Below are positions 3,669-64,000 of a stretch of 64,000 bases of DNA, piece after piece. The position numbers and the translations under genes were made by a program. Below the pieces are notes generated by a model. That model was given only the letters and a program-made list of their open reading frames with translations, searched no databases and had not been told where the DNA came from. The stretch comes from Octopus vulgaris (Eukaryota): assembly GCA_951406725.2 (NCBI GenBank), contig OX597827.1, positions 53,072,001 through 53,136,000 of the forward strand, in the 5' to 3' direction. The stretch's first letter is position 1; the number at the start of each line of letters is the position of its first letter.

Positions 3669-3750
3669 CTATTTCATCTCCATGTCCCATAGCAGCTAAT
3701 GCGTGAAGCAAAGCGGGACTGATAATCGAGGGAATTCCTTTCAACGGCAT
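3669..3750 (-). CDS. FUOM: Fucose mutarotase, coding exon 1 (MPLKGIPSIISPALLHALAAMGHGDEI)
   Basis: ATG at 3750-3748, GT donor at 3668-3667. Signature LKGIP..ISP.LL..LA.MGHGDEI of FucU/RbsD; 27 codons + 1 nt joins exon 2 in frame. Confidence 0.96.
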
Positions 3751-3883: not shown

Positions 3884-3900
3884 CCAAAGTAAATACGCTC
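3884..3900. repeat. 17-bp target-site duplication CCAAAGTAAATACGCTC, copy 1 of 3
   Basis: Exact copies at 3884-3900, 5612-5628 and 7339-7355 bound the two element copies. Confidence 0.95.
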
Positions 3901-5611
3901 TATTTCTTTATTACCCACTAGGGGCCACGAAGAGGGAACATTACAAAACATGGGGGACATAAAACAATGCGATTAAAATTATGATTAAATGAATGTTAAA
4001 ATGAAAAAATGATAACATGAAAGCGATGCTAACGGCCCCCTCCGCCAGCATCACTTACCTTTCCGTTTCCTATCGCGATTCCAAAGTTTTTCACCTCACC
4101 TTTCATTTCTCTCTCATATCTCTCTATCATATCATCCTTCAAATATACTGATATACAATTTATTCTTAGTTCATAGCACTTGTTCATCAAAGAGCCCATG
4201 AGTTCAAAATCGAATACCGCATAGCTTCCGTCCTCATACTCCTGCCATACATCGTCTTCAAAAAGCCTTCTTGCGTTCTCAGTATCTCCCTTCCCCACAA
4301 CACATAAAAAGTAGGACTGGGGCTTTTGTATGTTCTGTGTGTCTGTTTTCGTTTTTCTTGTAGGCGGGGAGTGGGTGGGATTGCTGTTTGCGGGAGCAGG
4401 ATGGGTCTCCAAGGGTGTGGGTGGTATTGGGGTGGGTTGGGGCTTCGCACAGTTTTTCCTTTTCTTTCCTTTTCTCTTCTTTCTGCCCTCCTCACACTCT
4501 TTTTGCATCTCCTCCTCCTCTGTCATTTCCCTTTCCGTCTGCTTCTCTTTAATTTCTTCTTCTTTTGGGGCCTCCTCTTTTGGAGTTTCCTCAACGATTT
4601 CCTTTTCTCTTGGTGGGGGAGGGCAGAAGGCTCTTATGTGGCCCCTCAGGCCACACTTGTAACAACGTGGAGCTCTGCCCTCCACCCACACTCTCATAAT
4701 CACGTCTCCCAATTTAATGCTCTCCGCCAGGTCCACCAGTACCTCGTTCTCCGCCTGCACGTTTAGCTCTACTATTACGCCTCTCCAGCCCTCGGTTTTG
4801 ACCGAGGCATGGAGAATATCTACTTTCTCCTCGTGGCCGCTGATCACAGCCGCCACAATCCACTCAGCCTCCACGTTTGGTGGCACTCCCTCCACCCTTA
4901 CTCGTGTGATCCTTCTATTCAAGTACATAGGTAAAAGTGTTACCCTTTCTGACTTCACCGCCTTCACCGCCATCCTCCTCGCTGCAGTCTCACTTTTAAA
5001 ATGCACCACTACAGTACCGTACTTCGATCCTCGAGTCAGAAAAATGATTTCCTCCTCCGATCTTCTCAGGGCCTCCTCTATCCATTCCATGTTTACGATC
5101 TCTATTTTCTTTCTTTCGTTCACGAACACCCTGTAAATTATGGTCCTCTTATTGTACCATTCCTTTCTCTTTGGTGGTGGTTCCAGTTCCACCTCGCCGC
5201 TGTCCTTCCTCATATACCTCTGGAAACCTGGCAATTTTTCTAGGTTTATTTCTTTTTCCTGTTCCGTCTTCTTTTTTGCAACTCCTGCGTACGTTTTCCT
5301 GTTTTTTGTCTCCACATTATTTACATCACCGATTTGCTCGTCTTCAGAGTTCGATGTCTCCGACAAGCTTTCAAATATCCATTCTTCCTCCGACTCCTCC
5401 ACTAGGGAGTGGTCATCCATCTCCTCCCGCCTGACAGGCCAAAACGGCCGTCAAACAGAAAAAGTGTAACGCGCAGAACCAGTGGAACGCGAAACCGCTC
5501 CAACGCCGTTCAAAATTTCCACAACAACAACAACAATTCTTTTTGATCTTTTTTTACCGAATTTTACGAGCGTAAAAAAACACGACCGAACTCGAACAGA
5601 CAACTGCTCAC
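3901..5611 (-). mobile_element. ORF1-only non-autonomous non-LTR retroelement (Tx1/L1-like), copy 1, 1711 bp
   Basis: Flanked by the 17-bp TSD. 191-nt 5' UTR, single ORF, 128-nt 3' UTR ending GCCCCTAGTGGGTAATAAAGAAATA. No RT or endonuclease, no LTRs or TIRs. Confidence 0.85.
4029..5420 (-). CDS. 463-aa LINE ORF1/gag-like protein: acidic N-terminus, RRM-like region, CCHC zinc knuckle, charged/Pro-rich linker, unknown C-terminal domain
   Basis: Intact ORF. CYKCGLRGHIRAFC is CX2CX4HX4C; the RRITRVRVEGVPP motif upstream of the knuckle is typical of Tx1/L1-clade ORF1. Confidence 0.88.
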   Translation of the reverse strand: MDDHSLVEESEEEWIFESLSETSNSEDEQIGDVNNVETKNRKTYAGVAKKKTEQEKEINLEKLPGFQRYMRKDSGEVELEPPPKRKEWYNKRTIIYRVFVNERKKIEIVNMEWIEEALRRSEEEIIFLTRGSKYGTVVVHFKSETAARRMAVKAVKSERVTLLPMYLNRRITRVRVEGVPPNVEAEWIVAAVISGHEEKVDILHASVKTEGWRGVIVELNVQAENEVLVDLAESIKLGDVIMRVWVEGRAPRCYKCGLRGHIRAFCPPPPREKEIVEETPKEEAPKEEEIKEKQTEREMTEEEEMQKECEEGRKKRKGKKRKNCAKPQPTPIPPTPLETHPAPANSNPTHSPPTRKTKTDTQNIQKPQSYFLCVVGKGDTENARRLFEDDVWQEYEDGSYAVFDFELMGSLMNKCYELRINCISVYLKDDMIERYEREMKGEVKNFGIAIGNGKVSDAGGGGR

Positions 5612-5628
5612 CCAAAGTAAATACGCTC
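5612..5628. repeat. 17-bp TSD, copy 2 of 3 (between the two elements)
   Basis: Exact match to 3884-3900. Confidence 0.95.
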
Positions 5629-7338
5629 TATTTCTTTATTACCCACTAGGGGCCACGAAGAGGGAACATTACAAAACATGGGGGACATAAAACAATGCGA
5701 TTAAAATTATGATTAAATGAATGTTAAAATGAAAAAATGATAACATGAAAGCGATGCTAACGGCCCCCTCCGCCAGCATCACTTACCTTTCCGTTTCCTA
5801 TCGCGATTCCAAAGTTTTTCACCTCACCTTTCATTTCTCTCTCATATCTCTCTATCATATCATCCTTCAAATATACTGATATACAATTTATTCTTAGTTC
5901 ATAGCACTTGTTCATCAAAGAGCCCATGAGTTCAAAATCGAATACCGCATAGCTTCCGTCCTCATACTCCTGCCATACATCGTCTTCAAAAAGCCTTCTT
6001 GCGTTCTCAGTATCTCCTTCCCCACAACACATAAAAAGTAGGACTGGGGCTTTTGTATGTTCTGTGTGTCTGTTTTCGTTTTTCTTGTAGGCGGGGAGTG
6101 GGTGGGATTGCTGTTTGCGGGAGCAGGATGGGTCTCCAAGGGTGTGGGTGGTATTGGGGTGGGTTGGGGCTTCGCACAGTTTTTCCTTTTCTTTCCTTTT
6201 CTCTTCTTTCTGCCCTCCTCACACTCTTTTTGCATCTCCTCCTCCTCTGTCATTTCCCTTTCCGTCTGCTTCTCTTTAATTTCTTCTTCTTTTGGGGCCT
6301 CCTCTTTTGGAGTTTCCTCAACGATTTCCTTTTCTCTTGGTGGGGGAGGGCAGAAGGCTCTTATGTGGCCCCTCAGGCCACACTTGTAACAACGTGGAGC
6401 TCTGCCCTCCACCCACACTCTCATAATCACGTCTCCCAATTTAATGCTCTCCGCCAGGTCCACCAGTACCTCGTTCTCCGCCTGCACGTTTAGCTCTACT
6501 ATTACGCCTCTCCAGCCCTCGGTTTTGACCGAGGCATGGAGAATATCTACTTTCTCCTCGTGGCCGCTGATCACAGCCGCCACAATCCACTCAGCCTCCA
6601 CGTTTGGTGGCACTCCCTCCACCCTTACTCGTGTGATCCTTCTATTCAAGTACATAGGTAAAAGTGTTACCCTTTCTGACTTCACCGCCTTCACCGCCAT
6701 CCTCCTCGCTGCAGTCTCACTTTTAAAATGCACCACTACAGTACCGTACTTCGATCCTCGAGTCAGAAAAATGATTTCCTCCTCCGATCTTCTCAGGGCC
6801 TCCTCTATCCATTCCATGTTTACGATCTCTATTTTCTTTCTTTCGTTCACGAACACCCTGTAAATTATGGTCCTCTTATTGTACCATTCCTTTCTCTTTG
6901 GTGGTGGTTCCAGTTCCACCTCGCCGCTGTCCTTCCTCATATACCTCTGGAAACCTGGCAATTTTTCTAGGTTTATTTCTTTTTCCTGTTCCGTCTTCTT
7001 TTTTGCAACTCCTGCGTACGTTTTCCTGTTTTTTGTCTCCACATTATTTACATCACCGATTTGCTCGTCTTCAGAGTTCGATGTCTCCGACAAGCTTTCA
7101 AATATCCATTCTTCCTCCGACTCCTCCACTAGGGAGTGGTCATCCATCTCCTCCCGCCTGACAGGCCAAAACGGCCGTCAAACAGAAAAAGTGTAACGCG
7201 CAGAACCAGTGGAACGCGAAACCGCTCCAACGCCGTTCAAAATTTCCACAACAACAACAACAATTCTTTTTGATCTTTTTTTACCGAATTTTACGAGCGT
7301 AAAAAAACACGACCGAACTCGAACAGACAACTGCTCAC
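5629..7338 (-). mobile_element. ORF1-only retroelement, copy 2, 1710 bp
   Basis: Appears identical to copy 1 except one missing C (CCC at 4288-4290 vs CC at 6016-6017). Confidence 0.85.
5757..7147 (-). pseudogene. ORF1 of copy 2, frameshifted near 6016 (real or homopolymer sequencing error)
   Basis: ORF track splits it into 5915-7147 and 5757-6032; restoring one C gives the 463-aa protein. Confidence 0.75.
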
Positions 7339-7355
7339 CCAAAGTAAATACGCTC
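7339..7355. repeat. 17-bp TSD, copy 3 of 3
   Basis: Exact match; unique sequence resumes at 7356. Confidence 0.95.
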
Positions 7356-7479
7356 GCGTGCACACACGTGTACAGTAAGCACTAATACACATATATTTGC
7401 ATACACACTCACACAGCCAATAACATGCAAGCAGCTGATATATACAGCTGACACACACACACTTAAATATTTGCGCATG
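7356..7479. promoter_or_regulatory. Probable displaced FUOM proximal promoter fragment (E-box, octamer, CCAAT, NRF1-like half site)
   Basis: CACGTG 7365-7370, ATTTGCAT 7395-7402, CCAAT 7417-7421, TGCGCATG 7472-7479. Would lie ~150-275 bp from the FUOM ATG if the 3455-bp insert is removed. Confidence 0.4.
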
Positions 7480-7492
7480 TTGGTGCCCACAT

Positions 7493-8601
7493 TTTGCGAG
7501 GTAACGAGCAAGGTGGCTGCAGTAGCCAAGACCTGGTCTTGGCGGTGGCTATCCTTGAAAGGGAGGGCGGAGGTGGCCAATGTGTTTATCGCATCGGTTA
7601 TCACCTACCGCCTTTCCGTCGTTCCCTGCCCTGATTCGTGGTTGATCAAGTTGGAAAGACAGCTCTTCTACTTCTTGTGGAAGGGCGGGAAACCACTTGT
7701 GAAACGCTCTACTTGCTGTCAACAACCGTTAAAGGGTGGGCTAGGGATGCCTTGGCTGATGATGCGCAGACATGCGCTGAGGTTAAGACATCTGTGGCTC
7801 TACCTGGATGGTGAACGGGTGTGGTCTTCGCTAGCAAAACTGATGTTTCCCAAGTTCACCAGTTTCGGTGGATGGGAAACCTGGCTGAATCGTAGATCGA
7901 AACTTGGTACTTGGTACACGGAGTGTCGCAAGGCTCTCCTGCTATTCCGTCGCTCGGGCAACGCCTGCGGTGGGGGTTCCACCACATTCTTCTATAGAGG
8001 GTTGGTAGAGGCGGAATGTGAAGATACCTTGGGGGAAACCCTAGGTCTCGACGATAATCAGCTGGCCAGTCTGTTCCGACGTACGTTCGAGCCAAGGACA
8101 CTGGACAACTTCCAGAAGTCTCTGGCATGGCAATGCTACAGAGGAGCTCTACCTGTTCGGGATAAACTCGCAAGGCACGGTGGCCAAGACAGTCCGATAT
8201 GTCCAAGATGCGGGCGGGATAGGGAAACCGTCCCGCACGCGATTGTTCATTGTCCGGACGTGTCTGAGGTGTGGGTTTATGCCGAACACCTGTTGTCAGG
8301 TACACGAAGAGTACAGCTGTCGACTGAGTCGATTACAAAAATTGACCCACCGGATTTCCTCGTGAATGAAGGTAAGTTTCGTTTTCTCGTTGTAGTAGCA
8401 ATCGCGAAAGAGGTGATATGGAAGACGAGAATGAAAGGTGTACAGTCAGGCAAGTTCATCTCCGGCCCTGGTTTGATGAAGTATTTCATCTTTCACCTGA
8501 AAAGGAAGATAGGGCTGGAGAGAATATGCCTGACTAGGAGAGTGTATGAAGAACGATGGAAGGATGTAGCACGAAAGTTGCGAGCGAAAGATACAACATA
8601 A
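7493..8601 (+). CDS. C-terminal part of Tx1-type ORF2 (post-RT region and zf-RVT CCHC); no native start
   Basis: Uninterrupted frame with W..RWLSLKGR, FLWKG, GGLGMP, LPVRDKL and CPRCGRDRETVPHAIVHC. Confidence 0.85.
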
Positions 8602-8845
8602 ATGTGATACCAAGCTTAACCAAAAGTATCAGTGGGGAGGCGGGGCTCGTGGGGTCCGAGCTAAACCCGCACCCACTCCACCCGTAACGTCTTCCGGTCT
8701 GTCCCATCATCCGATTTCTGTCCATTTATTGTAATTCATGAAAATTTTTAAATCCGATTTTGTGTAAAAACCATTCGTATGTCTGACCCCAAATCAGATT
8801 GTTTTGTCCCCTCTGTGTTCGCCCCTTGTGGGTAATAATAAAACA
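7493..8845 (+). mobile_element. 5'-truncated Tx1-clade (L1 group) LINE with 16-bp TSD
   Basis: ATGTTGGTGCCCACAT at 7477-7492 and 8846-8861. Contains the ORF2 C-terminus and a 3' UTR ending GCCCCTTGTGGGTAATAATAAAAC. Confidence 0.9.
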
Positions 8846-9317
8846 ATGTTGGTGCCCACATATGGCCGTGTTTCTGTTAGTCCCTCCAAAGGCCAGCCAG
8901 ATACGAAGGCACTACCAGCTTCCTGCCCAAACACGACCTGCCTTGATCAATAGCAGCCTTGTTTCCAGTAGCCATTCAGTTAACGAAACCTGAATGAACT
9001 AGGTTTCTGTAAAGAGGCCTGCAAAACTTTAAGCCACATAGAGCCAAATCAAACCGTTTTAAATAATAATTAATGTAACTCCTACTAAATGTGTTGAGTG
9101 CCTTTTTCTTTTGTTTGCCCCCACCAAGCATATGCACAGAGTGTTTGAAGTGGTGTACAGATATTGTATATTAAGAAGAAGGAGGCAGTCAGAATTTTTG
9201 ATAATTCTTTATTAGTGTTTTTGTTTATTTAACTGAACTCTTCAAGATAATAAAACCAGGATCATTGTCAGTGCTAATAAAGAATTATCCAAAATTCTGA
9301 CTGCCTCCTTTTTTTAA

Positions 9318-32949: not shown

Positions 32950-34830
32950 TTACATCACCATTCCTGTATGTGCCTTTATCCCAGCTGTTGGGACATTCGG
33001 TGTATAAAGGAGTTTGATTCTGCTACCTTCGTCTGTATCTGGTCCTGAATTTAGATGGGGTGGATGGTACAATACAATGGTGGACAGGTCTCTCAATTGT
33101 ATGATACTCAATGCCAAAGTTAGATACTAGTCCATATAGGATTTTCTATATGTATGTTATTGCATATCTCTCACGCCTTCGTTCCAGGGAGTAAAGCTGT
33201 AGTTTTCTCAGCCTATCCCTATAGCTCATCTACCGCACTGTTTCAATCTTTTTAGTGTAGTGGCGTTGGACTGCTTCAAGCTCCACTGTTAGTTTGGCAC
33301 CATGTGGTGACCATAACTGGGAGCAGTAGTCCAGGCGGCTGAGAACAAAGGTTCTCCACAGGGTCAACATAGTTTCTTGGTCGCTTGTCTTGAAGGACCT
33401 CAATATCCATCCTGCCATTTGTCTGCACTTTACTACCATCTTGCTACTGTGCATATAAAATGATGCGTCATTGCACATACTGATCCCTGACTCTTTCACT
33501 GCCTGTGACTGGGATTGTAGTGCTTTCGTGTCCTGTAAAAGTAGGTTGTACTGTATTCGTGAGTTGATAGTGCAGTGCTTGAAATTTTCCAGCATTAAAC
33601 TGCATGTTGTTTACTTCAGCCCACTTGTATATTGAATTTAGGTACCACTTTAAGCTTCTGACATCATCTTGGTTTTTTTATTTCCTGTGATAATTTTGTA
33701 TCATTGTCATAGTTAGAGAAAGTGGCTGTCCGAGTGACCGTGGGCATGCCTAAGAGGGCTATTATGAACAGTAATGACCCCAGAACAGTTCCCTGGTTGA
33801 CACCACTTAGGATTTGAGTTTCCTCGGAAAGGGCACCATTGGTTGCTACTACCTGACTTCTGTTTTTAAGGAAGTCATGTAGCCACTCTCTCAGTTTCCC
33901 AGCAATGCCAAGGTCTTGTAGCTTATGATTTATCATGCCATGATCTACCTTATCAAATGCCTTTGTGAAGTCAAGGTATATTACACTGACATCTTAATGG
34001 TTAAAAAGCTGCTTCAAAACCCAGTCATAGTGCTGTAGGAGCTGTGTGAGGCAGCTTCTTCCTGGATGGAAGCCATGCTGTGTATTGTTCAGGAGGTAAT
34101 TTTCTGCTCGGAACTTTATCAGCTTCTTTCTGATGATTTGCTCCATGACTCTACTGATATGTGAAGTCAGAGAGATTGGCCTGTAGTCTTTGGCCTCGGC
34201 TCTGCTTCCATCTTTGTGGATAGGGCATATAATACCTTCTTTCAGCTTTTTAGGAAGTATACTACTTGCAAAGAAACTTTGGAAAAGTATCTGAAGTGGT
34301 TTCGCTAGAGCCTGCTTACATGACTTTAGGAGAATAGCTGGGAAGTCATCAGGATCAGTGGCAGGGCATGAGTTCAGTTCATCCTTGGTAGCTGCTACGT
34401 CTGTTTCTTCAATGTTGATGTAATTGATGGCTGGCGCCTCCTTTTTTAGAGCTGCAATATCGAAGAATTTAGCCAGATTTTTTATCTGCATGTGTCCAAA
34501 GGGGGAAGTGAAGACACTTTTAAATTGTTCATTGAAATCTCACTTATCCTTCCTGGATCCGTCATCAGTGAGTCATTCCCTTGGAACAACGGTCCTATTT
34601 TGTATTGTATTGTGGCTGTTTCCTTTGCGAATTTATAGAAAGCTTTGGGATTTGTTTTTATGCTTTCCACAGCCTTTTTCTCTCTCTCTGCTCTTTCTCT
34701 TTCACGAGAGAGTTTGATCTTGCTTTCTAGGAGTGTCCGTGTTAAGATAGACTTTTCTCTATCCTTCAGTTGCCTATTCAGCCACTTTGAGATCTTTGAC
34801 CTGCTTTTTCTTCTTTCTAAAGAATATTTA
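32950..34830 (-). mobile_element. Degenerate CR1-like LINE ORF2 (same family as 42795-45490)
   Basis: [40 protein letters not shown]; many stops and frameshifts. Confidence 0.88.
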
Positions 34831-38735: not shown

Positions 38736-40712
38736 AAACAAGTCAAAAATAGAAAATGCTAAGATGATTTTATAGTGAATCTTTCAGTACCGGTTTCGGT
38801 CATTTTGAGACCTTTTCAACTGTAACGATTAAATAATTAAATTTAGAAAAATTTAGAAAAATTAGAAGAAAGGTTTTTTTAAAGGAATACTTCCATAGTA
38901 GTGTTCAGATATAGGTGGCATTCTGCCTTTCTCTGACTCCCTTGTTTGCACTTGTGTATTCGAGGTCGTTGTGAGTTCTTGAGTGGGTGGGAGTGGGAAA
39001 ATCTGGGCTGGTCAGTGGCGACCGGCAGTCGCTGCGTAGACGTTATACTTAAAGACATTAGTGACAAGGTTAAGGGGTAGAAGGTGGAGAAGTAGAAGAA
39101 GAAGAAGAAGATGACGGTGCCGATGATGATGACGATGAAGAAGAAGAAGGAGAAGGAGAAGATGACGATGATGATGGTGGTGATGACGATGACGACGATG
39201 ATGATGATAAATGATGATGAAGAAGAAGAAGAGGAAGAAGAAGAAAAAAACAGAGAAGGGAGAATATGAATGGGTGAAGATATAGCTGTGATGGGGCGAT
39301 TAGTAATGGATTCTATGGAATGTAATATTTGTGTGTGTATATATATTTCTTTTATTCTTAAGTTGAGGTATATTAATTGTTTGTCGTAGACCCGTTAAGA
39401 AGTGGCCTGTATTTTATAATAAAGAGATTTTCTTTACTTATTCGTTGTCTCGAGGTTGTATCGTCCCTAAATTGGTAGAGGGGAAAATTCTGAAGTTTGG
39501 TGTTTTTTTGTTGGCGCAAGTATCTATGTGTTGGCTAAAAGCTATTTTTCTGTTTTGGGGAATTTTTATCTGGGATCTGTGCAGGGCCATTCGTTTACGC
39601 AAACCATTTTTTGTTTGGCCTATGTACTGCTCTTGACACCCGGAGCAGGTTAGTGAGTATATTAGGTTCTCCGAAGCACATGTGAAGTTGCTTTTCACTG
39701 TAAACCGTTGTCCCTGTTTGAAGGAGAACTCAGAACCCTCGATTAGATAGTCGCATATCCCGCAATTGGGTCTTCCACATTTTTTTACTGTCGGCTTCTG
39801 TGTTGAAGAGTGAATTCGGGCTTGTGTTAGGAGACTTTTCATGGATCTAGGCTGTCTTTTGCTTTTTATGATCGTGTGTGTTTGGAGGATTGTGTTCATT
39901 CTGTGGTCTTTTTTTAGGAGGGGTATGTTGTGGAGGATGGTGCCGAAGGCTTCGTTATTGAGAGGGTTGTGTGTGGAGATGTATGGTAAAGCTTTTGGTT
40001 GTAAGTTATTCTTTGATTTGGGATGTCTCAGTTCCTTGATGTTAAGTTGAAGGGCACGTTGAATGCACTTGTCAATAAGTGAAGGTGGATAGTTCCTGGT
40101 GATAAGGGTATCTTTTAGTTCTTGTAGTCGTGTGTCTCTGGTGTTTGCGTTAGAGACTATAGTGCATATCCTTTTTGCTAGATTGAAGGGGATATTCATC
40201 CTGGTGTGTCTGGGGTGGCATGAATTGAATGGAAGATATTGCTTAGAGTCTGTAGGCTTATAGTATATGTCTGTTTCTATTATATTATTAGCTTTCTTAA
40301 TGAGGATATCGAGGAAGGGAAGTTGTTGCTGGCTATATTCCATCGTGAATTGGATGTTTACGTCCAGCCCGTTTAAAATTTCCTGGAATTCTATGAGTTT
40401 TTCTATATTTTTATGCCAAAGAATGAAACAGTCATCTAGATATCTCTTCCAGTTGTTTTCTATGTAGATGGAGAAAGGGCTGCTATATCTTTCTAGAACC
40501 TTACGATACAGACTGATCTCTAGGTATCCTATGACTAAGTTGGCAAAGGAGGGGGCCATTCGTGTACCCATCGCAGTCCCCGATTTTTGTCGGTAGAAGT
40601 TGTCATTGAAGGCGAAGAAGTTATTTTCCAGGATGAATTTAACCCCTTCTATCACGAATTCTTTTTTGATGCGGTGTGGTAGTTCGTTGGCGTGATTCTC
40701 TAGCCAGAATTG
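38730..40712 (-). mobile_element. 5'-truncated Penelope-like retroelement (RT + GIY-YIG endonuclease, 3' UTR with GAA/GAT repeats)
   Basis: GTAMGTRMAPSFANL, WKRYLDD, PFLD, SCHP, C..C..C, LIYSLTC..C..QYIGQT. Frame open from 40712 to ~39480. Confidence 0.93.
38785..38822 (-). ncRNA. Minimal type I hammerhead ribozyme motif, U3-A8 variant
   Basis: CAG-TTGAAAA-GGTC-tcaaaat-GACC-GAAA-CCGG-TA-CTG, on the Penelope sense strand downstream of the ORF. Confidence 0.7.
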
Positions 40713-40744
40713 GATATATATATATATATGTATATATGTATATA

Positions 40745-41470
40745 CATTTTTCTGTTGTAGTTTCAGGTCATAGCAGCAGCCACGCTGATTCACCGCTGTT
40801 TTCTGTTTTGCAACACTGTTATTGCTGAGAGCCTCCTCCATTATATGGCACATGATAAAGAATGGAGTTTGATGTAGCTACCCTCATTTTCACCTCCTGC
40901 CGTGAAGTAGGTTAATATAGTACTCTCGACAGGAAGATGTACAGCTTTGATTTACAAACGTCTACATCTACTTTGTTCAGGTTCCTAAGGCTCTTTGGGA
41001 GAATATTAAAAACCGGTGAGCCACTGAAACCTAGGCTGTTGCAGTAGCTGGTCCTGAGGAGCGATGGCATTGCGAGGATCTTTGGCACTATGCAGTGTCG
41101 TCCCGTTCTGGCATTGGTGTAGCTTTCAATGTCAAAATTTGGCACAGTTCCTTCCAGGATCTACCAGGTATATACTACTGCATACCTCTCTCATCTCTCT
41201 CCAGGGAGAAGAGTCGTAACTGTTTCAGCCCTTCCCAGTAGCTGAGTAGTTGCAAAGAGGCAATCTTCTTTGTGAATCTTCTCTGGAATACTTCAAGGTC
41301 TGCTGTTAATTTAACACTGGTGGGTGACCACAACGGTAAGGAGTAATCCAGGCAGCTGAGGACGAATGTCTTCCAGAGGACCATCAGAGTTTCCTTATCT
41401 CTGGTTCTGAAAGTTCTCAGGATCCATCCAGCCAATCGTCTGCAATTTGTAGCCATCCTGGTAATGTGCA
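40745..41470 (-). mobile_element. CR1-like LINE 3' fragment
   Basis: [28 protein letters not shown]. Confidence 0.85.
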
Positions 41471-42489: not shown

Positions 42490-42725
42490 CATGTATATAT
42501 ATGTTTATATATATACGTATATGTAAATACGTTTAAATATTTATAAATGCATTTATGTATGTATATATGTATATATATAAATATATATACATATTTCTTT
42601 ACATATATGTATATATATATACTTATATATACATATATCAATATATATGCATATATATACATATATTTATATACATATATCTACATATATACACATATAT
42701 CTACATATATATACATATATCTACA

Positions 42726-42774
<49 letters not shown>

Positions 42775-42794
42775 ACATATCTATGCATATATTA

Positions 42795-45490
42795 CAACAA
42801 GCCATGTAGGCAAGTTTGAAGACTGCCTTATAAAAATAGAAGAAGTTCTAATCACATTAGAACAACACATAAGTGTACTTCTTATGGGAGACTTCAATCT
42901 ACCCAATGTCAGATGGCCCGAGGGCCTTTCTCTCCCAGGAATGACAAGATGTGAACGAGGACAGGCGAGATCCCTCCTGAACCTCATCAACACCCTGTAC
43001 ATGGAGCAAGCAATACTCCAACCAACCAGGGCAGGTAATACATTGGATCTCTGCTTCACAAATAATATGGATCTCATCCATAATGTGAAAGTGACACCGA
43101 CACTACTCTCGGATCACAACATGGTAGAGCTGACCATGTACGGGCCAAAGGAAAGCATGGACATGCAGCCTACAAGAAACCCTCAGAATCTTTCCAGCTT
43201 GAACTTCCATAAGGCAAACTGGAGACAAATTGAGAAAGAGATCCTCAAACAAAACTGGCCTGAATGTCTCTCCTCGCCAGACATCGACGTGAAACTTCAA
43301 CAATTCATGTCTGTAATGCAAGCCATATGCTACAAATGTGTCCCAGAGAGAAAGGCCACTGTACACAAGAACAAAATCTCCAGAGAGAGGAAAATTTTAA
43401 TGAGACGGCGTACAAAAATTTCAAATCGCCTAAACAAACAAATTGAAAGCAGTGAAAAGTCCCGCCTGAAAATAAAACTGTTGGAAATTGAAAAATGTCC
43501 CCAACTCTTCCATGAAAAGGAAAGAGTAGACAAAGAAGCCTGGGCTATAGACAACATAAAATCTAACCCCAGAGCTTTCTACAGGTATGCCAAAGAAACA
43601 GCTACGGTGCACTGTAGGATAGGGCCACTCCTTGAAAAGGATGGCACACTCACAGGAAAACCAATGAGGGTAAGTGAAATACTGAATGAGCAATTCAAGA
43701 GTGTTTTCACTCCACCCCTTGGGCATTTCCAAATCACCAATGCAACTAACTTCTTTACCACTGCAGATATAAAATCAGAGGCGGCGACGATAGATTACAT
43801 CGATATAAAGGAAGACGATGTAATAAAGGCTATAGATGAAATGAAAACAGACTCAGCTACTGGCCCCGATGGATTCCCGGCAATCCTCCTAAAAGTATGT
43901 AAGAGAGTCCGAGCAAGACCACTGCAGTTCCTCTTTCAGAGCTTCCTTGCAACTGGCAAACTTCCAAGAAAACTGAAGGAAGGTAAAATATGCCCTATTC
44001 ATAAAGGAGGTAGCAGAGCGGAGGCCAAGAACTACAGACCTATCTCTCTGACCTCACACATCAGCAAGGTCATGGAACGAATAGTCAGAAGGAAACTGAT
44101 CACCTTCCTTGAAGAAAATGACTTGCTGCCTGACACCCAACATGGTTTCCGACCAGGAAGAAGCTGCTTAACTCAGCTCCTACAACACTATGACTGGGTG
44201 CTGAAACGGCTGCTTAACCACTCAAATGTGGAAGTGATATATCTCGACTTTGCAAAGGCCTTTGATAAAGTCGATCATGGAATGATATGTCACAAACTGC
44301 GTGATCTTAGCATAGTTGGAAAACTGGGAGAATGGCTTCATGACTTTCTGAAGAATAGAAGTCAGGTGGTAGTAGCCAATCGTTACTTCCATTAACACGC
44401 AAATAGTGAGCGGTGTTCCGCAGAGCACTGTTTTGGGACCACTACTGTTCATAATGGCCCTCTCAGACATGCCCTCAGCCACGCAGAGAGCCACGATCAC
44501 AAGTTATGCAGATGATACAAAAGTTTCACAGGCAATACAGAACCCTGAGGACACTAAACATAATATACAATAATATACATAATAAACAAAATATACAAGT
44601 GGGCTGAAAAGAATAGCATGCAGTTCAATGCTGAAAAGTTTCAAGCTTTATGCTATTAGCATGCAAAACTAAATGCAATACCCAATGAATACACTGGACC
44701 GGGAGGAATTGCAATCCCAGAGGCACAATCAGTGCGTGACCTGGGTATTTACATGAGTGATGACGCAACCTTTCGTGTACATGTTGCTAAATTGGCAATG
44801 AAATGTAGACGACTGGCCGGATGGATTCTTAGAACCTTTAGAACAAGAGAACAAGAAACCATGATGGTCCTCTGGAGAACACTTGTCCTAAGCCACTTTG
44901 ATTATTGCTCTCAGCTATGGTCACCATCCAGTGTCAAGTTGATCACAGAACTTGAGGCGATCCAACGTAGCTACACGAAGATAGCCTCTGTGCAGAATAT
45001 AAGCTATTGGGAAAGACTCAAGAGATTAAAACTCTATTCCTTGGAGCGTAGGCGAGAAAGATATGCCATAATATACATCTGGAAGATCCTGGAAGGACTT
45101 GTCCCAAACTTTGGCATCGAGAGTTACCCAAATGCCAGAACTGGGCGAACCAAAGACTCCAAAATTTGCCATCTAGATGTAGGACAAGATACTGTGATAG
45201 CCTGGGCTTCCGAGGCCCACAGCTCTTCAATATCCTCCCGAAGAACCTAAGAGACATGCATGGGGTGGATGCAGATGTCTTTAAAATGAAACTGGATCTC
45301 TTCTTCTCAGGTATCCCAGATGAACCAACTTCACGGCAAGAGGTGCAGATGAGGGCAGCTGCATCGAACTCTCTCATGCACCAAATGGCAGTTGCTAAAA
45401 AGCATTCGTGAAGTAAAACCATGTAGCAACACCAAATGGCGGTGCCCCAGCATGGCCACAGCTCGTGAGCTGAAACTAGAATCAATCAAA
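42795..45490 (+). mobile_element. 5'-truncated CR1-like LINE (APE C-terminus + RT), disrupted
   Basis: [45 protein letters not shown]; deletions and frameshifts after 44380. Confidence 0.92.
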
Positions 45491-55482: not shown

Positions 55483-58400
55483 TAGATAAACTTAGATAAA
55501 CTTAGATATGTTTCGACCAAAGATTGGTCCAGGCCATGTCTAACTTAATAGCACCACCTGATAAGATTATTCAAATCCTGTTTAAGTCAAGTTTTGTTTG
55601 AGTCAAGTTTTGTTCAAGTAGTGAGTTCTTGTTGGGTGAGTTGTATCCAATTATGGGTGGCTTATCTGGTATTCTTTGAAGGAATCTATCCAGACTCTGT
55701 TTAAAGTTGATGGGATCCTTTTCCTCTTTGATCTCCCTCGGGACAATGTTAAATAGGGCAAGGCCTGTTGAGGAAAAGAAATTATGTTGCAGTGTGCATG
55801 TATGTTGTGATCTTGAATTGGGCAGGGGACGTATAGCCCGTGGTCCAAGTCTTGGATGAACCTTGAAGCTAATGTTTAGGTCGTTTGGGCAAAGTTGGCG
55901 GTATATTTTCCACATCGTACAAATGATGTACCGCTCACGGCGACGTTGGAGGGAGTAAAGTTTCAAGGCTTTAAGGCGATCCCAATAATCGAGAGCAGCC
56001 ATGTCTTCAATTTGTTTCGTGAGTGCCCTCTGGGGTGACTCAATTCTGGAGATGTTTTGTCTTGTGTGAGGAGACCACAGTGGGCAGCAGTATTCAAGGT
56101 GTGGCCGTACAAAGGAGGAAAAAAGTGGTATGATGACACCTTGTTCTCTGGACCGGAAAGTTCTTAAGATCCAGGAACTCATCCTACGAGCTATATCGAC
56201 CTTCTTGTTGATGTGTGCACTCCAACTGAGATCGTCATCAACAATTACACCCAGGTCTCTGATATTGTTAGAGGCTGTGAGCGGTTCCCTTGAAGGAAGA
56301 GAGTATGGTTGTTTTAGTGAGGAATTTCTTCCAAAATGCATCAGCTCAAATTTTCCCTCATTCAGTTGCATTTTGTTTCTGTCTGCCCATTGACTCACAG
56401 CATATAGATCAGACTGGAGTTGAGTTCGGTCTGCTTCTTCATTGACGATTTGCTGGAGCTTAGTGTCATCAGCAAATATTTTCACTTTGCAGTAATGTAC
56501 GACACTGGAAAGGTCGTTTAAGTAAATTATGAAGAGTAGCGGACCCAAAACAGTTCCCTGGGGAACACCGCTGGTGACTTTTGCTGGGTTTGAGTGGACT
56601 CCATCAACTACAACATGTTGTGTTCTATTCGCCAGGAAATACTTTATCCAGTGTAGAACTTTTCCACGGATTCCAACATTTGCCAATTTTGAGAGTAGGA
56701 TGTTATGGTCTACCCTGTCGAACGCTTTACTGAAGTCAAGATATATGACGTCAGAGTTCGAACCTGTTCCCAAGGCTTTGAGTACATCTTCAATGTGGCG
56801 TAAGAGCTGTGTTAGACAGTCCCTGCCACAGCGAAAGCCATGCTGATTTGCATTTAGGAGTTTGTGGGTCTCCAGGAAGTCAGCTATCCTTGATCTTAAC
56901 ACTCTTTCAGACACTTTAATGATGTAGGAGGTGAGTGAGATTGGGCGATAGTTGACTGCGAGGGATCTGTTTCCCTGTTTGAAAACCGGGATGACCGACT
57001 GGGATAGAAACTGTTTCGGTATATAACCTGCGTCTAACGAATTTCTCCAGAGGTTGGTCAGAGGGACTGCAAGTTGGTATCTACATTCCTTCAGGAGACT
57101 AGCGGGAAATCTATCAGGGCCTACAGCAGAGTAATGTTTGACCTCATTTATTGCTACTACAATGTCAGTGGCAGTGAAGGTCATGTCTGAGATTTTGTGT
57201 TGGGAGTCAACTTCGTTCGTTTCCCTTACGTCAATATCAGTGGGAACACTAAAGACAGAGCAGTATTGTTTCTGCAGTATTTCTGCCATTTCTTTAGCAT
57301 CGTGTTGGGGAATGCCGTTATCATCAATCAATGGCCCAATGGGCGAGACAGTGGTTCTATGCTTATTTGCATAAGAATAGAACACTTTTGGGTTCTGTTT
57401 GATGTTTTTGATTACCCATTGTTCCTCCACAGCTCTTTGATTTTCAATGGAGGTTTTCATGTTGTTCTGCAGATGAAGTTTTTCCAGCTCTAGTCTTTTC
57501 ATTGTTGTTGAATGTGGATGTTGTGTGTGGGAATATTTTAATTGGTTGATTTTTTTGTTGAGTCTTTTGATGCGCCTGATGAGGGTTTTTTTCTTTTTAG
57601 GGAGCCGGTTTCTGTTTGTGTTAGTAGATTTCTTGGGAGCGTGTTTAGAGCATTTATAGGTGACAATGTTTTCAAAGTGCTGCCACGCAGTCTCAATATG
57701 AGAGGAATTGAGAGTAAAAGACTAGTCGATGGAAGACAGATCCTTTCTGATTGTTCCCCAGTCCGCTTTGTGGAAGTTTATGTTGTCAAATGGGTGCCAT
57801 GGAGTGGGATTGGCTGGTTTGGTTTTTATATGCGGGAATTAAGATTGCAGAGTACCATGTCGTGGTCTGAGAGGAGAGTTTTTTCGACTGAAATACTGTG
57901 AACGTAGCTAGAGTGATTGGTCAATACCAGATCCAAGATCGTTTTATTCTGTCTCGTTGGTTCAAGCACTAGCTGAGTCAGGAAATACTCATCCATCAGA
58001 TTAAAGAGCAGTTCTGCTGCTGCTCTATCTGATGTAGAGCACTTGCCTAACTTCAGAGTATTTGTGGGCCAGTTCACATGAGGGAGGTTAAAATCACCCA
58101 TCACTAGTAAGTTTCCGGAGTGGTACTTCCGAAGGAAGGACTTGACTTTGCTAAGGCACTCTTCAAAGTACTTTAGAGGTGCTTGGGGAGGCCTGTAAAG
58201 ACCAACAATGGTTATGTCCTTGGCTTTGTTGTATAGTGATACCGATTCACAGTAGCCATTGGAAAATATGTCCTTGGCATCAAGTGAAAAGGAGTCATGG
58301 ATAAAGATGGCTGTCCCTCCCTTATTTCGGTCTGTGCGATCCGCACGAACAATGGTGAAATCTTTTATTTTCACCTCTGCATCCATATGGGTGTTGTTCA

Positions 58401-58944
58401 GGTGAGTCTTGGTAAGGATAAAGAAAGGGAAGCAATGTGCCATTTCGGCAAGCCAACTCTCTATATATGGGATCTTTCATTTTTGGGCAATAATTGATGG
58501 GTTGATGCCACGTACATTTAACAGGAATGTCGAGGTAAGGGAAGTTGGTAATGGGTGAGTGGTCCTTGTGATTTGCATAGATGGTTGGTGATAGCTCGCT
58601 GGATCTCCTGGCTTAGGTCGGCCTTCATATTTTCTAGGTATGTCAGTAAAAAAGAGTTACTTGTTTGGTTTGCCACTTGGTCAGGGGATACATATTTCAT
58701 GTTGGCGTTGTTTGGTGTTTTTTCATGGTTCTGTCTACGTTGTTTGATTGTGGGAGGGGAAACGTGGTTGTATTTTGTTCTTGTTGTTGTCCTAGATTTC
58801 CTCTGTTCCTGTTTATATTTAGTCTGTGATCGTTTTGTGCCCTTCAGATGGTGGTGGTTGCATTCTGGGTTCAGGCACATCCTTTGTGAGACAAAAGTTT
58901 GGCACAGTTTAGGATGGAATAAGGTGCATACATTGTCTTTTATG

Positions 58945-61579: not shown

Positions 61580-61730
61580 ACAAGATCGACATTATTTACA
61601 TTCGACGGATATCTGTCCTCATCCTGTTTGTTGTTACAACAACGTTTCGATTGATATATCCTCCAGCCTTCTTCAGGTGTCTTGGAGAAATTTCGAAACT
61701 GGGTTATCATTCCTAAGATGTTTTTGGATA
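61580..61730 (-). mobile_element. Penelope-like terminal fragment with hammerhead-like motif (~61641-61680)
   Basis: Minus strand CTGAAGA-A-GGCTGG...TCAATC-GAAACGTT, stem II partly decayed. Confidence 0.5.
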
Positions 61731-61752
61731 TTATTATTATTATTATTATTAT

Positions 61753-64000
61753 TCTGGGCAAAAATAAAATAGAAGTCACTGCAGCACCAACGGCAGAAGA
61801 ATTGGAAGAATTCTGGGGAGAAATATGGTCGGCGAACGAACCACCAAAAAAAAGGAGTATCAAAATAACAAACTCGGCATCTGAACAAATTTGGACCCCC
61901 ATAACAACTGAAGAGGTCACCCAGGCACTGCAAAGACTAAGCAACTGGAAGGCACCTGGGAATGACAAGATCCCCAACTTCTGGTTGAAATATCTAACAG
62001 GAATGCACAAAAAGCTGGCTGAAAACTTTAACAACGTACTAGCAGAGCCAGAGACAATGCCTGAATGGCTCACGAAGGGGAAAACCATCTTAATTCCCAA
62101 ATCAAATGAAACAGAAAAACCAGAAAACTACAGACCAATAACCTGCCTCCCTACTATGTTCAAGACATTTACTGCAGTGATATCACAAAGGCTGAACAAG
62201 CACCTGGACGAAAACAAACTGTTCCCAGAAGAGCAGAAAGGATGCCGCAAAGGCTCATATGGCTGTAAAGATCAACTAATGATTAATAAAGCCATAACTG
62301 AAGACAGCCACAGAAAGAAGAAAGGCCTCAGTATGGCCTGGATTGACTACAAAAAGGCGTTTGATAGCATCCCCCACACATGGATCCTCGAAACACTAGC
62401 CATTAACAAAGTAGCACCAACAATCATAAAATTCATAGAGCACTCTATGAATAAATGGCAAACAGTCCTACACCTCCAAACAAAAGAGGGACTCATGAAA
62501 ACCAAAGACATCCCCATTAGAAGAGGAATATTCCAGGGAGATACGCTCTCTCCACTCCTTTTCTGCTCGGCACTGTCACCTCTATCTGATATGCTAAATA
62601 GAACTGGATGCGGATATAAATGTTACGGCAAAACGATCAGCCACCTTTTATATATGGATGACCTAACACTATACGCTGCAAATGACAAACAGCTGGAAAC
62701 ACTATTAAAGACAGTTCATGGATTTACCAAAGAAATAGATATGAAATTTGGATTAGAAAAATGCGCCAAAGTAACCATGAAAAGAGGAAAACTAGTTAAG
62801 AGTAACAACATCACACTAGATGAAGCAAATGAAATAAAAGAATTAGACCAAAGCCAAACTTACAAATACTTAGGAATCCATGAACTAGATAAGACACAAC
62901 ACACACAAATGAAAGAGAAAATAAAAAAGAATATTATAGACGAGTTAGATCAATACTAAACACAGAGCTCAATGCTAAAAACAAGATAATAGGTATCAAC
63001 ACTTTAGCTGTCCCAGTTATAAGTTACAGCTACAATATCCTTAACTGGACACGAAATGAACTGACCAAAATAGACAGGAAAACAAGAAAAATAATGACAG
63101 GATCTAGGATGCATCACCCAAAATCTGACATAGAAAGACTATATATACAACGTATAGAAGGTGGTAGAGGCCTTATACGGCTGGAAAACTACTATAAAAT
63201 AACCACCATAGGACTGCAAAAATATCTACTTCAGAAGGAAGGAAAACTGATCCAGATAGCGGCAAAACACGAGCAAAACAAAAAACTGTTCTCAGTATTT
63301 AAGGAAGCTGACAAATACAAACAAGAAATCATACCACCTAATAAACATGAAGAAGAAGAAGAAGATGAAGAAACAACAAAAGCTATAAAAAAAATGAAAT
63401 CCAAACTAAAAATAGAACAGCAACGAACCATGATAAAACGATGGCAAGAAAAGCCCCTTCATGGTAAATACTGGACTAAACTAAACGCAAAAGAAATAGA
63501 CAAAGAAAAATCCCAGCAATGGTTGAGAAGCTCAGGACTCAAAGCAGAAACAGAGGGATTTTTAATTGCAGCACAAGACCAAAGCCTCCCCACCAGAAAT
63601 TACCAAAAACATGTAATGAAAAGAAATATTACAAGTAACTGCAGAATATGTGGAGATGGACAAGAAACAATAAATCATATTATCTCTAGCTGCCCAGTCC
63701 TGGCTAAGAAGGAATATATTCACAGACATGACAGAGTTGGAACTTACATACATTGGAAGCTATGCCAACATTATGGAATAACAACAGAAAAAAGATGGTA
63801 TAGGCACACACCAGAAAAGGTCACAGAAAACGAGAAAGCAACCATACTCTGGGATATGCTGATACACACAGATAGAGAAATTAAGGCCAACAGACCAGAT
63901 ATAGTTGTCAGAGACCATGAAGAAAAAAATGCTTTCTAATTGATGTATCAGTACCGGCAGATGACAACGTGTCTCTAAAAGAAATGGAGAAACTCTCAAA
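61753..64000 (+). mobile_element. 5'-truncated Dong/R4-clade non-LTR retrotransposon (RT + CCHC + restriction-like endonuclease), running off window
   Basis: NWKAPGND, YRPITCL, WIDYKKAFDSIPH, QGDTLSP, YMDD, CRICG...ETINHIISSC, RHD, NRPDIV, LIDVSVP. Only two 1-nt frameshifts. Confidence 0.92.

Follow-up and report, generated by a model that had tools for sequence, protein, structure and literature searches.

Introduction

Non-autonomous long interspersed nuclear elements (LINEs) that keep a first open reading frame (ORF1) and lack the second (ORF2) are already known, as are retrotransposon tandems whose units are separated by a target-site duplication (TSD). HAL1 from L1, HeT-A from Jockey and Ag-Sponge from CR1 are described as ORF1-bearing non-autonomous LINEs (PMC5786205, PMC5753468), and the passage of a review that lists ORF1-only derivatives names L1, Jockey and CR1 only (PMC5786205). 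An account of the crocodilian SINEU-3 and Tx1-Mar reports Tx1-dependent non-autonomous elements in tandem, "sandwiching a TSD", Tx1 families that target a DNA transposon, and 5' extensions transcribed from the flanks (PMC4494074). Double-insertion tandems of R1, P and jockey in Drosophila are described as dimers separated by the target duplication, those of P lying near promoters (bioRxiv 10.1101/158386), and in the telomeric arrays of HeT-A and TART the upstream sequence is reported to help transcribe the downstream copy (PMC5537684). Here we analyze a 64,000-nt stretch of the Octopus vulgaris genome (positions 53072001-53136000 of C14 in the 2.8 Gb assembly searched; hereafter the window), in which two ORF1-only units of a putative Tx1-type LINE lie head to tail between three copies of one 17-mer, upstream of the first coding exon of a fucose mutarotase-like gene.

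No description of an ORF1-only Tx1 derivative was found in the literature searched, Repbase and Dfam lying outside that search. An octopus repeat annotation counts 80 L1-Tx1 families, undescribed in the part of that source available (PMC13282606), and the present family may be catalogued in that published library or in Repbase/Dfam.

The dimer and its empty allele

A preliminary description, made from the letters of this DNA, had read the locus as an alternation of target and element (T-E-T-E-T), and this is borne out: the 17-mer has exactly three exact occurrences in the window, which bound and separate two head-to-tail minus-strand units (Table 1). The units are as nearly identical as had been claimed, with 0 substitutions and one 1-nt indel at ~4288, and their 3' end is AATAAAGAAATA, without poly(A). 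They encode no reverse transcriptase (RT) or endonuclease (EN), the sole Pfam sign being a sub-threshold zf-CCHC match. The intact 463-aa ORF1 ascribed to each unit is present in the left copy; the right copy is frameshifted. This short, 1-nt-indel allele is also present in L003, and the long spacing is found in L004, in five older copies printed and in contigs from other samples; older relatives have the same C-terminal domain as the 463-aa form. The long allele in other samples and older copies points to recurrent slippage or homopolymer assembly error as the origin of the indel, and the right-copy frameshift may be such an assembly error.

Evidence from the population came from four other samples (runs) with three organism labels, as short-read contigs only, which testify to presence and not to absence; dimer carriers are possible among these samples. 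All four yielded the empty site that the preliminary description had proposed looking for: a contig runs from 3883 straight on to 7339, the junction having 17 ambiguous letters, equal to one 17-mer, and the same contigs join 7476 to 8846 with 16 ambiguous letters. Since the empty allele holds a single 17-mer, the repeats at the dimer are a true target duplication. The dimer insertion is polymorphic and recent.

Table 1. Features of the dimer locus and its surroundings, in window coordinates.
Feature	Position	Strand	Remarks
Fucose mutarotase-like host gene, first coding exon	3669..3750	-	Sub-threshold PF05025 match (positions 1-26, 22.7 bits); joined by splicing to 1247
Target-site duplication copy 1, dimer's 3' side	3884..3900	.	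Single in empty allele
ORF1-only unit, downstream copy, 1711 nt	3901..5611	-	
3' tail common to autonomous Tx1-type element	3901..3946	-	40/47 aligned nt; putative role in ORF2 recognition
Intact ORF1, 463 aa	4029..5420	-	Core predicted as two RRMs and a CCHC knuckle
Kept ORF1/ORF2 junction motif AGGTAAGTGATG	4049..4060	-	
5' tag resembling L003/L004 target duplication in 480-bp repeat	5593..5611	-	One mismatch
Target-site duplication copy 2, between units	5612..5628	.	
ORF1-only unit, upstream copy, 1710 nt	5629..7338	-	
ORF1 frameshifted past residue 377	5915..7147	-	410 aa as assembled
Identical 5' tag, upstream unit	7320..7338	-	
Target-site duplication copy 3, dimer's 5' side	7339..7355	.	
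5'-truncated autonomous Tx1-type copy (ORF2 C-terminus with zf-RVT, 3' untranslated region)	7477..8861	+	16-bp duplication 7477-7492, 8846-8861; site empty in 4/4 runs

The ORF1-only family and its probable autonomous partner

A genome search with the unit, in which 38 of 614 candidates were scored, returned five more copies that are nearly full length (93-99%) and many others at 69-83%, and an exact 5'-core pattern had 214 matches genome-wide. One hundred ORF1-only units were extracted (two places being counted twice) by the rule that a 3' motif lies 1.45-1.8 kb beyond the 5' core, and units so bounded have no room for ORF2. In 34 of them an ORF of >440 aa stops no more than 170 nt from the 3' motif. 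Target duplications of 9-24 nt were called at 16 sites, that of the autonomous neighbor included, and none was found at 5 others. The genome-wide search proposed in the preliminary description thus yields multiple full-length copies without ORF2, dispersed and with their own duplications at many loci, which upholds the proposal of a non-autonomous ORF1-only Tx1-type family. The dN/dS (non-synonymous to synonymous substitution) ratio of the ORF1 core, a further check proposed there, was 0.11-0.19 in 14/14 comparisons, with dS reaching about 2.4, and about 2 between sub-lineages, and on these codon comparisons ORF1 is under purifying selection. At least one further ORF1-only lineage, of ~1.8-1.9 kb and with an ORF1 ~37% identical, occurs in the same arrays (L041, L035, L162-L164). 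A full HMMER search returned 317 relatives, all unnamed; a word-index protein search found no relative. Contigs at ~97-99% to the ORF1-only family, at a depth of ~190-360, were seen for window 4155-6779 in run X10, which is possibly RNA; this suggests expression of the family in another organism label.

ORF1 is predicted to have an RNA-binding fold of the RRM-RRM-zinc knuckle type. With a 68-sequence alignment the core was modeled at a predicted local distance difference test (pLDDT) score of 95.8 and its top PDB matches are tandem RRM proteins, the fold from the single sequence being poor (pLDDT 45.5); in the Atlas, CCHC clusters and a ZCCHC3-like RNA-binding cluster were matched at 0.90-0.92. 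A Pfam scan gave no match of the unit's ORF1 to the L1 ORF1 family. Identity with HAL1 proper was considered and rejected, as this RRM-RRM-CCHC type of ORF1 matches the local autonomous element and not mammalian L1 ORF1.

That autonomous element is represented by a complete copy in L050, with a 473-aa ORF1 bearing a CCHC knuckle and a 1132-aa ORF2 with EN of the APE type, RT and zf-RVT. Such an architecture is typical of Tx1, and we refer to the element as Tx1-type on the basis of its domains rather than of an RT tree. Its ORF1 shares 35% identity over 291 aa with that of the unit, and good DNA alignment between the two is limited to the last 47 nt, 40 of which are identical. An autonomous Tx1-type LINE sharing this 3' tail likely provides the ORF2 protein by which the unit is copied. 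The family had been called young; given the dS values and the ORF1 divergence, it is old, and only the window insertion is young.

A motif at the ORF1/ORF2 junction, AGGTAAGT, is present in 92 of the 100 units and at 6/6 autonomous ORF1/ORF2 junctions (counterparts of window 4049-4060, minus strand, in L050, L103, L106, L115, L117 and L255) and nowhere else in the 148 kb of unit sequence. Retention of the junction suggests that ORF2 was lost long ago by internal deletion. The motif is also a consensus splice donor, and its retention despite ORF2 loss hints at selection on it, for U1 binding or for splicing into downstream exons. Within a 480-bp tandem repeat, the L050 element and the ORF1-only copies of L003/L004 share their end point to the nucleotide, a common target that speaks for mobilization in trans only indirectly. 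An abundant tRNA-SINE-like (short interspersed element) repeat (L096 4387-4604, L111 5151-5352, L083) also has a Tx1-type 3' tail, suggesting that it likely uses the same machinery, and is itself targeted near its head.

Arrays and 5' tags

Clusters were defined as same-strand 5' cores no more than 10 kb apart and were counted among the first 100 listed of the 214 cores. An array count had also been suggested in the preliminary description; 75 of these 100 copies are clustered, none in mixed-strand clusters, and the largest cluster has 14 units, as against 5 of the first 100 listed matches for a CR1-type control element. Stacking is the norm for this family, and re-insertion at used sites is common. 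Adjacent units are less than 80% identical in 14 of 47 pairs, and short 5'-truncated pieces lie inside arrays, a pattern that DNA duplication by itself cannot produce. Spacer-separated arrays with other spacers were found at C4:45.68M, C4:80.14M, C5:118.81M, C26:13.93M and C29:24.54M. Arrays of autonomous elements with a ~5.3-kb period (L239-L251; C8, C10, C22, C24, C27, C30, C58) end in a second multi-copy region, within which nick positions scatter across ~60 nt immediately ahead of a possible splice donor.

The unit had been credited with a defined 5' end, which does not hold, as in both window units the opening 19 nt agree, but for one mismatch, with the target duplication of L003/L004 in the 480-bp repeat. 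In the 14-unit array, which lies in a Helitron-like element, the unit tag matches a different multi-copy target, and the tags of L019 and of an autonomous copy in L005 likewise match another multi-copy target. The 5' end of the window unit is a captured piece of an earlier target. Tags that match former targets suggest that transcripts likely start in the flanking DNA of the source copy, a flank-derived start of the kind proposed for SINEU-2 (PMC4494074).

The host promoter and the neighboring insertion

The dimer is in sense with the host gene, the ATG of whose exon lies 134 nt downstream of it, and more fucose mutarotase-family motifs occur at about 1191, -1145 and -3559. The splice joint 1247/3669 was found in three of four presumed RNA runs, none of the runs with spliced contigs being recorded as RNA. 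One spliced contig starts at 3810, 74 nt from the duplication, which places the dimer site near the promoter, the exact start not being fixed by contigs. CpG counts in 250-nt bins around the site were uninformative, and the contigs examined contained no divergent transcript past 8861. A small contig carries, at C31:5713-5925, a full-score RbsD/FucU match that lacks introns and is possibly bacterial contamination of the assembly.

The truncated Tx1-type copy lies 121 nt from the dimer in the opposite orientation and is missing from the empty allele too; it is a second, independent, recent insertion. The host promoter, this neighbor and the captured 5' tag had gone unremarked in the preliminary description. 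A pattern for its 3' end, which was too specific, matched itself alone. Further retroelement fragments in the window, recognized by eye from translations as CR1-like, Penelope-like and RTE-like, lie at 33230-34491, 39438-40853, 42647-45250, 55571-58443 and 61718-63939.

Targets of the clade

The 17-mer had been interpreted as a regenerated sequence-specific target, and this could not be sustained: it is used by none of the other copies examined, whose called duplications differ from it, and we reject it as a family target. Relatives of the neighboring autonomous copy are found in 23 of 29 cases (some possibly the cargo of one insertion) at one site of a Helitron-like element, exceeding the share of >20% of copies in one target type by which site-specific Tx1 families have been defined (PMC4494074). 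The element was classed as Helitron-like from inspection by eye, which showed a TC start and a hairpin-CTAG end. In a set of 30 3' ends that partly overlaps the 29, 16 are at the Helitron-like site, 3 at a second site and 3 elsewhere, and behind the remaining 8 comes another clade member with the spacer of the Helitron-like site; the CR1-type control gave 0/30. Among 30 Helitron-like copies, 8 are occupied (the query's own included) and 22 are empty, and the tree indicates that some occupied copies may be cargo of one insertion. The Helitron-like element is short and non-autonomous, ~1 kb when empty (L039 2354-6880, L037, L040); arrays of Tx1-type and ORF1-only units occupy a single site in it and seem to travel with it as cargo. 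No copy of the window's own sub-lineage was found at this Helitron-like site.

Copies of the window sub-lineage in the 480-bp repeat lie 29 nt past a TATA-like motif. The L006 copy lies directly before a Tc1/mariner-like ATG, the L007 copy 40 nt before a 404-aa ORF, and the L048/L049 copies upstream of zinc-finger ORFs. The 480-bp repeat is dispersed and tandem, with an inverted end and a TATA-like motif (L004 811-1520, reverse strand); it had 193 matches among the 40 of 1652 candidates scored genome-wide and is a shared target of the Tx1 clade. We take its core, read by eye, to be hammerhead-like, and its folding over 176 nt was no better than that of shuffles. A known RNA gene as the target was considered and rejected, as Rfam returned just microsatellite-like microRNA hits together with a single U6-like one lying ~1 kb away from the L006 insertion, and at gathering score gave nothing at five further loci, the 480-bp repeat included. 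Core-promoter motifs at the 16 duplication sites (the 5 sites without a called duplication being left out) were Inr-like in 3/16 and TATA-like in 3/16, against backgrounds of 0.08 and 0.15, which is not significant. A bias of the clade to transcription starts is plausible, being suggested by the window locus and several others, with the motif test flat. Counting against strict start-site targeting are 5'-truncated copies in unremarkable or antisense contexts at C24, C7:64.8M, C4:45.3M and L068.

Discussion

We consider it probable that the dimer arose from a trans-mobilized ORF1-only RNA through two target-primed events at one open promoter site. The family would have arisen long ago through ORF2 deletion. 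Its RNA would often start in flanking host DNA, hence the tags, be packaged by its own ORF1 protein (ORF1p) and be reverse transcribed at a nick by a borrowed ORF2 protein (ORF2p). The clade machinery would return to used sites. Here the 17-mer would have been doubled by an initial insertion, and a further event at that open promoter site, templated either by the original source RNA or by the copy already in place, would have completed T-E-T-E-T.

Several points weigh against two separate events. The units have 0 substitutions between them, as against 13 and 16 to the closest copies elsewhere; they pair as sisters in the tree; none of the 6 and 7 exact pattern matches that the assembly yields is an identical source copy; arrays at C2:138.8M, C4:80.1M and C7:4.98M are monophyletic too; and a monomer allele was not seen in the short-read contigs of the four samples. 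In addition, trans-mobilization is deduced here from sequence comparison, and the autonomous subfamily of the partner is not fixed. The identity of the units, their sister placement and the want of an identical source mean that local duplication fits these observations as well. Accepting the same family and the same trans-mobilization, one insertion may have been followed by unequal exchange or slippage between its two 17-bp duplications, which we regard as unlikely, if a serious competitor. Such doubling at the DNA level would explain the absence of substitutions and the identical, private 5' junction, and it agrees with the monophyletic arrays at other unique sites and with the mutated 3' end common to four consecutive units at C4:45.68M; set against it, 17 bp is short for homologous exchange, the family demonstrably re-inserts at used sites, and an independent insertion took place 121 nt away.

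An assembly artifact, in which a single real unit was written twice, is very improbable. The units are identical save for a homopolymer indel, no read spans the dimer in the short-read contigs, and the low proportion of units with an intact ORF (34/100) suggests frequent indel errors in the assembly, but the central 17-mer is exact and comparable spacer-separated arrays have diverged units at other loci. A one-off deletion of ORF2 from an autonomous element, with no family behind it, can be dismissed for practical purposes, as no supporting point was found for it and the many dispersed ORF2-less copies, their deep sub-lineages, the purifying selection and the low ORF1 identity to the autonomous element examined (only 35%) all oppose it.

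Beyond two target-primed events at this one site, we tentatively put forward a wider possibility, which we hold with less than even confidence. The octopus Tx1-type clade and several ancient ORF1-only passengers may home to transcription start regions and not to one sequence. Sense landings at host or transposon promoters would be transcribed from the landing promoter, leaving the old target as a 5' tag, and re-insertion at the same start would build HeT-A-like polar arrays at ordinary gene promoters, with the fucose mutarotase dimer, and the second, oppositely oriented insertion 121 nt from it, being an array caught at birth. Ty3/Tf1-like retrotransposons target transcription starts. If start-site targeting is true, the clade would be a LINE analogue of promoter-targeting long terminal repeat (LTR) elements and would continually supply octopus with regulatory variation.

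The family adds a fourth LINE clade to those with ORF1-only passengers in the list of the review passage, and it shows that the protein of such a passenger has stayed under strong selection over deep time, making it a natural system for the role of ORF1p where ORF2p is supplied in trans. At this locus an empty allele, a dimer allele and a recent insertion nearby occur at the same promoter of an expressed gene, so that the way in which the tandem formed and its consequences for the host gene are both testable.

A comparison with the systems described shows both parallels and disparities. Like HAL1, HeT-A and Ag-Sponge as described (PMC5786205, PMC5753468), the octopus unit consists of a 5' untranslated region, ORF1 and a 3' tail, without ORF2, and would depend on an autonomous partner; unlike them, it is Tx1-type, lacks poly(A) and is found mostly in tandem arrays at interstitial sites. 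With SINEU-3/Tx1-Mar, as reported (PMC4494074), it shares a probable Tx1 dependence, TSD-separated tandems, DNA-transposon targets and 5' extensions that are likely flank-derived. SINEU elements are described there as non-coding with a small nuclear RNA (snRNA) head, whereas the octopus passenger encodes a conserved ORF1p; also unlike SINEU/Tx1-Mar, the main target of its relatives is Helitron-like and the window copy is at a single-copy gene. Like the Drosophila tandems of R1, P and jockey, it forms a TSD-separated dimer, and P-element dimers are near promoters too; in the same account, jockey dimers are no closer to genes than single copies (bioRxiv 10.1101/158386), whereas stacking is the majority state of the octopus family. 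Also, like HeT-A and TART as described (PMC5537684), the octopus clade forms same-strand, head-to-tail arrays of ORF1-only and complete elements. Unlike those, its arrays are non-telomeric and have target duplications, and its tags match former targets rather than the 3' end of the upstream element.

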